Positions 15,001 through 18,000 of a DNA stretch of 46,608 nucleotides are shown piece by piece. The stretch lies in the IMG/VR virus record IMGVR_UViG_2522572021_000005; one strand, 5' to 3'. Source of the stretch: a virus (Duplodnaviria; Heunggongvirae; Uroviricota; Caudoviricetes). Numbering within the stretch: the stretch's first letter is position 1; the number at the start of each line of letters is the position of its first letter. Made by a program: the position numbers.

Positions 15001-18000
15001 AAAACCCGCCCACAAGCGGGTTTTGTTGTGCCACTTATCTCGGATAGACATGGTGAATGCGCTGGTGGAGGAGATAAGGGTGATTTTTGTATGCTTGCAA
15101 CATTGATTTCGTAACGTTATTATCCTGCGCCCGGCCCTTTAGCTCAGTGGTGAGAGCGAGCGACTCATAATCGCCAGGTCGCTGGTTCAAATCCAGCAAG
15201 GGCCACCAACCGCCACTAGCCATCAGGAAAGAGCGTCAACCCTTTAAGTTGAGTGTGCGAGGTTCGAGTCCCCGGTGGTGGTCCATTATCGGTATTCTGC
15301 GTTGTTAGCTCAGCAGGACAGAGCAATTGCCTTCTAAGCAATCGGTCACTGGTTCGACTCCAGTACAACGCGCTACACTTATTTTCCCGGCTCGCTTTTG
15401 CGGGCCTTTTTTGTATCTGCGCCACGCCCGGCGCATACCAACCACAGAGCCTTTCGGGGGGGATCATCCGGCGAAAAAAACGATCGCTCCGGACACCGCG
15501 CCCCCTCTCACGCAGAGAAAAAATTCCCGTTTCAGGGCAGTTAACATGTTAACTGGCTGTCCGGGCATTTTTGCGGTTTTTATCTTTATTATTCAGTTTG
15601 TTGTGCGAAAAAAATGTTAACTGGCTTTTTCAGCAAATGTTAACCAGGCAGCAGTTAACATTTGCGGCATGAGACGCCGGGAAAAATGGGCTGAACCATA
15701 CCCGGCTGAGTGCGTTCTGGACCCGGGAGGAGGCTGTGCTGACAACGCAAAAACGAAAATTTGCGCTGGCGCTCATGTCCGGGAAAAACAAAACAGCGTC
15801 AGCCATTGCCGCCGGTTATTCGGCGAAGACCGCCAGGGTTAAAGGCTCGCAGCTGGCAAAAGATCCGGAGGTGCTTGCGTTTATAGCCCGTAAACAGTGC
15901 GAGACGGTGGAGGTGGATGAGGTTCCTGTTTACCGGCAGAAAAAATCAGAGCAGGAGGATAAACCCCGTCGCCGTGAGGCGGCTGCAATACCACAGCCGG
16001 ACGAAACAAATCCGGAGATGCCACCGCCCGCGGTGATATCTCCTGGTATTGAATATATGGAGGATGGTCTTCCCGATCCGGTGAAAGCGATGGGGCGTCT
16101 TCTGGTGGAGAACATTAATACCGACCCCAGGCTGGCGCTGGATGCGGCTTATAAGCTGGCGCAGTTCACGCACCACAAAAAAGGGGATGCCGGTAAAAAA
16201 TCGGCAAAAGGTGACGCGGCGAAAAAAGCGGCTAACCGTTTTGCGGTGCCACCGCCACCCCGACTGGTGGTGAATAACCAGAATGAGGAAAGCGGATGAT
16301 ACCTGTATGGAGCACGGCATGTCCGGACTGGGCAGAGCGCCTGAAAAAGGGGCTGTCGATTATTCCGGCTCCGATTTATCCGGACCAGGCTGCACATGCA
16401 CTGGCGATTTTTAAACAACTGCGGATTGTGGATGCACCGGGTAGCCCGACATTCGGGGAGTCCTGTGCACCGTGGGTGTTTGACCTGGTGGCGGCCCTGT
16501 TTGGCTCCTACGATGCGCAGACCGGTGTTCGCCATATCAAGGAAGTGTTTATCCTTATCCCCAAGAAAAACTCGAAGTCCACGCTGGCCGCGGGGATCAT
16601 GATGACTGCACTGTTACTGAACTGGCGGCAGGCGGCGGGTTACACGATTCTGGCCCCGACTGTGGAGGTGGCGGCCAACGCCTTCAACCCTGCCCGGGAT
16701 ATGGTACGACGGGACGATGATCTGGATGACCTCTGTCAGGTGCAGACACATATCCGGACCATCACCCATCGGGTGACGGACACCACCCTGAAGGTGGTGG
16801 CAGCCGATCCGAATACGGTGTCCGGTATCAAGTCCGTGGGGACACTGATTGATGAACTGTGGCTGTTTGGCAAGCAGTACAAAGCGGAAGACATGCTACG
16901 TGAAGCCATCGGCGGGCTGGCTTCACGTCCGGAAGGGTTTGTGGTGTACACAACCACCCAGTCGAATGAACCGCCTGCCGGGGTGTTCAGGCAGAAACTG
17001 CAGTACGCCCGGGATGTGCGCGACGGCAAAATTCATGATCCGCACTTTCTGCCGGTGATATTTGAACACCCTCCTGAAATGGTGGAAAGCGGGGCTAACC
17101 TGCTGATGGAAAACCTCGCCATGGTCAATCCGAATCTCGGCTATTCAGTGGATGAGGCCTTTCTGTACCGGGAGTACCGTAAAGCCCGGGAAGCCGGTGA
17201 AGAGACATTCCGGGGGTTCATGTCAAAACACGCCAATGTGGAAATTGGTCTTGCCCTGCGCTCTGACCGCTGGGCGGGGGCTGATTTCTGGGAAGAGCAG
17301 GGCCGTTGTATCAGCCTGGACGATATCCTGCGTCGTGCTGATGTGGTGACGGTGGGGATTGACGGCGGGGGCCTGGATGATCTGCTGGGAATGTACGTGA
17401 CTGGCCGTGACAGGGAAACCCGCGAATGGCTGGGCTGGGGCCATGCCTGGGTGCATGAAACCGCGGTGGTCAGACGGAAGAGTGAGGCATCCCGGTTTCA
17501 GGATTTTGTGGCCTGTGGAGACATGACGATTGTCCGTCGGGTCGGGGATGACACGGCGGAAGTGGCGGAGTATGTGCGTCGTATTCATGAGGCTGAGTTA
17601 CTGGATCATATCGGTATTGACCCGTCAGGTGTGGGGCAGATTCTGGATTCACTGGCGGAAGCCGGGATCCCCGATGAGAGTGTGGTGGGGATAAGCCAGG
17701 GCTGGAAGCTGGGCGGGGCCATCAAAACCACCGAGCGCAAACTGGCTGAGGGAGTGCTGGTGCATGGTGGTCAGCCACTGATGGCCTGGTGCGTTGGCAA
17801 TGCCCGGGTGGAGCCTAAAGGTAACGCCATTCTTATCACCAAACAGGCCAGCGGACGGGGAAAAATTGACCCGCTGATGGCGCTCTTCAATGCGGTGTCC
17901 CTGATGTCCCTGAATCCGGAACCGAAAAAGAAAGCGTATGAGGTTTTTTTCATATAACCCTGCTCACCCTGTAACCATCATGAACCGCTGCGGCGGTTTT

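Follow-up and report, generated by a model that had tools for sequence, protein, structure and literature searches.

The window analysed here, a 46,608-nt stretch of viral DNA (IMG/VR record IMGVR_UViG_2522572021_000005, class Caudoviricetes), is a defective lambdoid prophage of the PPompW type, in which three tightly packed transfer RNA (tRNA) genes lie downstream of the late-gene antiterminator gene Q. The middle element of this trio (15210–15285, plus strand) occupies the argN position of a lambdoid ileZ-argN-argO operon. It belongs, however, to a separate and widespread allele of the argN slot, with the anticodon UUU and a cytosine at position 33 (the UUU/C33 allele), and the copy in the window has additionally lost one base of its D stem. 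We lean towards reading this copy as a co-transcribed, probably still processed, but non-decoding remnant within a defective prophage; that it is an unusual functional tRNA is unlikely.

Structure and ancestry of the middle element

The 76-nt middle gene is recognised as tRNA-like both by ARAGORN and through its homologues. Its acceptor stem (CCGCCAC/GUGGUGG) comprises six Watson–Crick pairs and G3.U70, its anticodon stem (UCAAC/GUUGA) encloses the loop C32-C33-U34-U35-U36-A37-A38, and its 3′ half carries the T loop UUCGAGU, the discriminator U73, and an encoded CCA. The first-pass annotation of this DNA had described an atypical middle tRNA in a tight trio downstream of Q, and ARAGORN calls together with a direct reading of the sequence bear this out. 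The loop CCTTTAA, with C33 and a nominal UUU anticodon, is likewise confirmed: ARAGORN and the family alignment both return CCUUUAA, which disposes of the earlier worry that a manual fold might have been mis-registered. The two Watson–Crick pairs reported for the D stem are indeed G10-C25 and C11-G24 (D arm GCCA...GAGC), although a third pair can form if A23 is bulged. The same annotation credited the element with a good acceptor stem, T-arm, and CCA; acceptor stem and CCA stand, but the T stem contains an A51.C63 mismatch, which is common to the argN of phages carrying Shiga toxin 2 (Stx2).

Measured against canonical features, the element thus presents a mixed picture. A 7-bp acceptor stem, a 5-bp anticodon stem with a 7-nt loop, a purine at position 37, and a T loop of the form UUCRANY are all in place, but the D stem of three to four pairs and the U33 expected of an elongator are not. 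No match to the Rfam tRNA model (RF00005) was obtained for the element even at E ≤ 10, the sole match at this locus being one of 15.7 bits to tRNA-Sec; it therefore falls short of the 29-bit gathering threshold of the tRNA model. A chance match or software artefact was considered and is ruled out by clear homologues and a co-varying cloverleaf.

The closest known arrangement is the ileZ-argN-argO cluster of Shiga toxin (Stx) and other lambdoid phages (AP012530, AP012538, and phage 2851), which the window resembles in its position after Q, in gene order, and in tight packing; the trio of such clusters stands between Q and the lysis/stx region. In the Stx2 phages (AP012530), the middle gene of the cluster at this position is a tRNA-Arg(UCG). 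The ileZ of the window is identical to that of the Stx-phage cluster and its argO nearly so. Alignment with such clusters, a comparison to which the first-pass annotation had pointed, places the middle element in the same slot as a homologue of argN: the two align over their full length at 84% identity on the same scaffold, with U73 and the A51.C63 mismatch in common. They differ in that the window has UUU/C33 where argN has UCG/U33, in compensatory changes within the anticodon stem, and in the one missing D-stem base. Beyond the middle gene, the window differs further in an argO followed by CUA rather than CCA, and in the absence of stx or lysis genes after it.

Pairing across the family shows how the two lineages are related. 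When cloverleaf pairs were counted in an alignment of 24 distinct middle-slot sequences, 95.8% of cells were paired, compared with at most 53% when the partners were slid by one to three columns. Five pairs have changed on both sides among these sequences, and three of the double-sided changes distinguish the UUU allele from the majority argN type: 7-66 (U-A to C-G), 27-43 (C-G to U-A), and 30-40 (G-C to A-U). Such compensatory changes indicate that the UUU lineage evolved under tRNA-like structural constraint, and argue that it did not arise through loop decay of argN inside this prophage. The earlier proposal of a decayed copy of a rare-codon arginine tRNA is hence correct in part. Kinship with argN holds, as does decay of the D stem, but CCUUUAA is not a local decay product of argN and instead defines the separate allele.

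A single relative with a canonical loop was found, designated L009 (IMG/VR UViG 2861053794_000003, approximately 3790–4110 on the minus strand), which combines U33 in the loop CUUUUAU with perfect stems and a compensatory U4-A69 pair. Its cloverleaf equals its minimum free energy (MFE) fold. L009 belongs to another phage setting, lying after a variant ileZ and downstream of a methyltransferase-like open reading frame (ORF), with no third tRNA.

The weak D stem of the window copy is due to a 1-nt deletion (U12) relative to a 77-nt parent allele, as is evident from relatives such as phage Evi: Evi and the common 77-nt allele have the D stem GCUC/GAGC, whereas the window has GC-C/GAGC. The intact 77-nt allele scores 44.4 bits against the Rfam tRNA model, above threshold though below its neighbours, which score 65–74 bits. 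As the window copy yields no match, loss of U12 costs at least the difference. MFE folding of single sequences proved uninformative, since even the 72-bit ileZ misses the cloverleaf in this way, and was replaced by the energy gap between cloverleaf and best fold, calibrated on real tRNAs. This gap is 0–4.5 kcal/mol for ileZ, argO, thrU, and lysT, 0 kcal/mol for L009, and 2.7 kcal/mol for the intact C33 allele, as against 7.9–8.2 kcal/mol for the window copy, a range that includes the fold with a 3-bp D stem and bulged A23.

Distribution and decay of the UUU/C33 allele

The UUU/C33 allele of the argN slot is widespread—common in Escherichia coli and Shigella prophages—and little noticed. Of 5,426 complete E. 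coli genomes, 222 contain the exact 76-nt sequence of the window and 279 the exact intact 77-nt allele, while approximately 800 (15%) have the allele in some form. A synthetic U33 version of the 77-mer had no exact match in these same genomes, and all 35 occurrences of the scaffold in metagenome contigs have C33, no A, G, or U being found there. Within a set of one-genome-per-species representatives, only E. coli and Shigella flexneri match the exact pattern (with C or U allowed at position 33). Across 50,697 phage records, the only isolates carrying the allele, besides PPompW, are vB_EcoM-606R7, vB_EcoS-689R5, PhiR47_1, and Evi. In the RefSeq records listed, the window form is unannotated throughout and the intact allele is annotated as tRNA-Lys in every case. 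Literature searches on ileZ/argN/argO and on lambdoid tRNA-Lys found no paper on the allele within the library covered.

Searching IMG/VR with the ileZ 3′ end as the query gave 120 loci. The classical order Ile2–Arg(UCG)–Arg(UCU) accounts for 62 of these, and in 29 the middle gene is no longer recognisable. Fifteen loci, three of them incomplete, have the arrangement Ile2–UUU/C33–Thr(UGU)–Gly(UCC), and five have that of the window, Ile2–UUU/C33–Arg(UCU), a count that includes the window itself and two fetched phage records.

The Thr–Gly arrangement forms a sister cluster, whose middle gene appears as a prophage tRNA-Lys in the annotation of hundreds of E. coli genomes by the Prokaryotic Genome Annotation Pipeline (PGAP), as well as in phage PhiR47_1. 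It is the same CCUUUAA allele as in the window, and the upstream module is 98% identical to the window through the last base of the middle gene. Unlike the window copy, this form has a complete D stem of 4 bp, together with C70, and reaches 44 bits on the Rfam tRNA model; downstream of it come thrU and glyT genes identical to those of the host, in place of argO. The sister cluster is represented by L129 (4080–4233), L124 and L125, and the metagenome loci L131–L165, and two contigs have Tyr(GUA) instead of Gly(UCC). Its Thr(UGU), Gly(UCC), and Tyr(GUA) genes match thrU, glyT, and tyrU of strain K-12 with 100% identity but are spaced by 2–3 nt, unlike in the host operon. This arrangement suggests that lambdoid phages picked up the tRNA genes from their host.

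Comparison with one such prophage (L129) locates a junction. The stretch compared begins at position 14000, and from there, if not from further upstream, homology of 98% continues to the final base of the middle tRNA, breaking off exactly at 15285/15286. The window matches phage Evi from approximately 15003 to 15462, so that the 3′ end of the middle tRNA marks a mosaic boundary of recombination.

Damage to the slot is frequent and varied. In unbiased samples drawn from IMG/VR and metagenomes (n = 52), approximately 56% of copies are the intact allele, 21% belong to a U8C/C11U group, and 12% are of the window type. Lesions in other lineages of the allele comprise U8C with C11U, G24A, G52A, G66A, G72A, and one copy with eight changes; three lesioned copies that were fetched (L126–L128) have no tRNA annotation in RefSeq. 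In the 29 IMG/VR clusters with an unrecognisable middle slot, the anticodon arm has been replaced or interrupted (e.g., CCGCCATTAGCTTATCAGGAAGAGCAGACGACACGATAACAGGG...). Further argN-slot copies in IMG/VR loci have the anticodon loop deleted. The slot has thus been pseudogenised repeatedly, with ileZ and argO persisting. Invariance of the loop was considered as evidence of selection and set aside as underpowered, only around 20 independent changes being available over 77 positions.

Decoding prospects and competing explanations

U33 is almost invariant in elongator tRNAs, the U-turn uridine and the N6-threonylcarbamoyl modification of A37 (t6A37) both matter for decoding by tRNA-Lys(UUU), and A73 is an identity element of tRNA-Lys. 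The loop of the middle element equals that of the host lysT except at position 33, and its discriminator is U73 where lysT has A73. Five tRNA-Lys(UUU) genes reside at the lysT locus of K-12 alone, and with so many host genes, a role in codon supply is implausible. Arginine is no more promising a charge: C35 is the main arginine identity element, and mischarging by arginyl-tRNA synthetase through the retained A20 is judged unlikely, as position 35 is U. Experimental work points the same way for position 33. A U33C mutant of E. coli tRNA-fMet was left unmodified by TsaBCDE, the t6A enzyme of E. coli, and C33 was termed an anti-determinant by the authors (PMC8887486), and yeast tRNA-Gln mutants with U33C or U33A are weak decoders (PMC3664417). 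Natural C33 does occur in the initiator tRNA-Met of multicellular eukaryotes (PMC8887486); unlike the middle element, however, that tRNA is an initiator, and its t6A machinery accepts C33 through co-evolution; the E. coli enzyme, by contrast, does not act on U33C.

For the window copy, a remnant that is still transcribed would behave as follows. The three genes would be co-transcribed from a sigma-70-type promoter at 15095–15123, probably also by Q-dependent read-through, with transcription ending at a terminator at 15389–15412. Because the acceptor/T-arm half is largely intact, RNase P could still cut the 5′ end of the element and release a tRNA-sized RNA; this cut, falling 1 nt past the CCA of ileZ, would help to form the ileZ 3′ end. 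The released RNA would most likely be a dead or very weak decoder on account of its broken D arm, of a C33 that removes the U-turn uridine and, according to published experiments in vitro, keeps the E. coli enzyme from forming t6A37, and of U73 in place of the A73 of host tRNA-Lys. Given the many host tRNA-Lys(UUU) genes, nothing would select for decoding by the middle element.

Several observations weigh against this remnant reading. ARAGORN still calls the window copy a tRNA, and the 3-bp D stem with bulged A23 is available to it. The compensatory stem changes relative to argN mark the UUU lineage as a constrained tRNA, at least in the past. C33 is fixed, and the allele, carried by approximately 15% of complete E. 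coli genomes, is also found in phages that were isolated as virions; a fixed and widespread C33 can come from hitchhiking on a successful late-region module, but equally from selection. Faster decay of the middle gene is also not demonstrable, since the adjacent Thr and Gly genes of these loci show a similar degree of polymorphism.

Selection of this kind could lie in counter-defence. The UUU/C33 allele, possibly including the window copy, would then be a working lysine tRNA that escapes the anticodon nucleases PrrC and AriB, the latter from the phage anti-restriction-induced system (PARIS), an explanation that we consider unlikely. Stepping in for host tRNA-Lys(UUU) once these or similar enzymes are triggered, it would do what phage T5 tRNA-Lys does; phage tRNAs that substitute for cleaved host tRNAs are well documented. 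Restricted to the intact allele, the idea is unlikely without being far-fetched: C33 and the rebuilt anticodon stem would have evolved against cleavage by PrrC at the 33/34 bond and by AriB at 40/41, and the intact allele may also avoid t6A-dependent recognition. For the window copy, such a role is less likely again. Position 33, the only loop difference from lysT, is precisely the nucleotide whose 3′ bond PrrC cleaves (PMC2610378). Cleavage of host tRNA-Lys by AriB is abolished by U39→A and impaired by U16→C (PMC12409363), and all tested AriB determinants are changed in the element, which has U36AAGUU41 (G39-U40-U41) and C16 where the host has U36AAUC|A41 (U39-C40|A41) and U16. The neighbour in the sister cluster, Thr(UGU), is the other prime target of AriB (PMC12409363) and is also targeted by P2 Old (PMC12445682), and phage tRNA-Lys(UUU) genes rescue AriB toxicity (PMC12445682, PMC11464382). 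In the same direction point the lack of any codon-supply reason for a temperate phage to carry tRNA-Lys(UUU), and the fixed, widespread C33. Phage T5 provides the nearest parallel, in that its tRNA-Lys(UUU) has the same anticodon as the nuclease-targeted host tRNA and likewise has the AriB determinants (39, 40–41, and 16) substituted; it resists PARIS AriB, remains uncleaved, and rescues infection (PMC11464382, PMC12409363). The two scaffolds are nevertheless unrelated, and the two T5 papers cited give no change at position 33 of its tRNA (PMC11464382, PMC12409363). T5 is moreover a virulent phage with 23 tRNAs, while the carrier of the middle element is a temperate lambdoid phage. Function as a lysine tRNA is further undermined by C33 itself, which should prevent t6A37 formation and removes the U-turn uridine, and by U73, and approximately 45% of copies in the unbiased samples bear an extra structural lesion. 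Nor is the sister cluster obviously an anti-nuclease kit, because its Thr, Gly, and Tyr genes, being identical to those of the host, are not resistant variants; the notion of a nuclease-resistant tRNA kit is weakened accordingly. The window copy has in addition a broken D stem, and resides in a prophage unable to lyse or package.

The tight packing allows another explanation, namely that the element is kept as a tRNA-shaped RNase P signal separating ileZ from argO, with only its acceptor/T-arm half under selection. The 1-nt gap after the ileZ CCA and the single promoter and terminator serving three genes fit this idea, as does the distribution of damage: by our tally, around 8 of some 15 distinct lesions in the alleles collected fall at positions 8–26, in the D-arm region, while most changes in the acceptor give G.U pairs and both T loop and CCA have survived. 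However, independent lesions are few and some are linked, mismatches in the acceptor and T stems also occur (G66A, G72A, and G52A), and most argN-type clusters have 6–8 nt after ileZ instead of 1 nt. Moreover, the middle gene is badly disrupted in the 29 of 120 related clusters that retain ileZ and argO, which implies that a tRNA-like spacer is dispensable; a processing signal is quite improbable as the reason for its retention. More remote still is a part in frameshifting. Lys-AAG is the kind of slippery site met most often in E. coli phages, regardless of the tRNAs carried. The window encodes a tail-assembly chaperone pair, with a G-like ORF at 25001–25375 and a T-like ORF at 25399–25680 in the −1 frame, and the two overlap at a classic slippery heptamer immediately ahead of the G stop. 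A hypomodified phage tRNA-Lys(UUU) might in principle adjust the −1 programmed frameshift that yields the chaperone fusion: the G-like ORF ends ...AGA AAA AAG TAG, with the heptamer A-AAA-AAG at 25366–25372, both slippery codons are read by tRNA-Lys(UUU), and the G/T overlap of PhiR47_1, a phage with the intact allele, likewise contains AAG. The prevalence of Lys-AAG sites nonetheless gives such a coincidence a high base rate, and the same doubts about charging and decoding apply, so that we regard this explanation as very improbable.

For now, the outcome is chiefly a matter of clearer annotation. The tRNA-Lys of PPompW is a D-stem-deleted copy, one that RefSeq omits, and analyses of tRNA pools or codon adaptation should leave the intact tRNA-Lys, an argN-slot allele with a non-canonical C33, out of their tally of ordinary lysine tRNAs. 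Should the intact allele instead prove functional, temperate phages would join T5-like virulent phages in carrying nuclease-proof tRNAs, and C33 would represent a simple escape from nucleases that cut after position 33. The intact allele would also be the first natural bacterial elongator-type tRNA to work with C33, and a counter-defence gene would be present in approximately one in seven E. coli genomes.

Operon signals and prophage context

ARAGORN calls three tRNA genes in the whole window and no others; each is encoded on the plus strand. The first, ileZ (15133–15208), is of the tRNA-Ile2 type with anticodon CAU and an encoded CCA, and scores 72.5 bits against the Rfam tRNA model; an identical sequence is annotated as tRNA-Ile in RefSeq and as ileZ in AP012530. 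Its CCA is separated from the middle gene by the single base A15209, in agreement with the 1-nt gap reported in the first-pass annotation. The third gene is argO (15299–15373), a tRNA-Arg(UCU) identified by ARAGORN, by an Rfam tRNA score of 68.1 bits, and by alignment with the argO of Stx2 phages. Its 3′ flank at 15374–15376 reads CTA (CUA in the RNA), in place of the CCA encoded in Stx2-phage argO, and its maturation would need trimming and the CCA-adding enzyme. The encoded CCA is also missing from Evi and from five of six argO copies adjoining the UUU/C33 allele in IMG/VR and metagenome loci.

A sigma-70-type promoter is predicted for the tRNA operon at 15095–15123 (TTGCAA-17-TATTAT, plus strand), ending 9 nt before ileZ. 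The motif TTGnnn-N16–18-TAnnnT ends 5–12 nt upstream of ileZ in all 152 of 152 related loci, despite diverged flanks. The operon is closed at 15389–15412 (plus strand) by a hairpin resembling an intrinsic terminator, with a 7-bp stem containing six G-C pairs followed by the T-run TTTTTTGT. With a promoter and a terminator of their own, the three genes make up a single self-contained unit, probably active in the lysogen, and in this respect the tRNA operon behaves as a 'moron'.

Further upstream, Q is encoded at 14242–14937 on the plus strand; LC567822 and LC567836 both label the identical region as phage late gene regulator Q. A consensus scan places a candidate late promoter pR′ at the end of this gene (14921–14949, plus strand; TTGCAA-17-TATATT), in the same position relative to Q as in lambdoid phages. 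At 14998–15027 lies a candidate tR′, a G+C-rich hairpin of 13 bp whose two strands both have U-runs; it is a minus-strand call in the scan, and the plus strand reads ...GCGGGTTTTGTTGT. Site and hairpin would fit a pR′/tR′ pair, with Q reading through tR′.

Assignment to the PPompW type is supported by the tRNA cluster itself, as the 301 bases around it match, with 100% identity, eleven records of PPompW prophages in Shiga toxin-producing E. coli O145:H28, in which the three genes are annotated as tRNA-Met, tRNA-Lys, and tRNA-Arg. PPompW prophages, which carry type III effector genes, are all reported to be defective, having lost the lysis cassette through insertion sequences (PMC8112680). In the window, the terminase genes come directly after the tRNAs, beginning with the small subunit at 15736–16299, and no holin, endolysin, or Rz gene is found at 15413–15735 between the tRNA operon and this gene. 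Related PPompW records contain an ISEc20 insertion at a point matching approximately 15458–15462 of the window. Rfam matches above threshold elsewhere in the window comprise the small RNA DicF (4534–4585, minus strand), the sok antitoxin RNA of a hok/gef-type module (11701–11849, plus strand), and, at the right end, the ALIL frameshift pseudoknot of an IS3-family element (46211–46327, minus strand).

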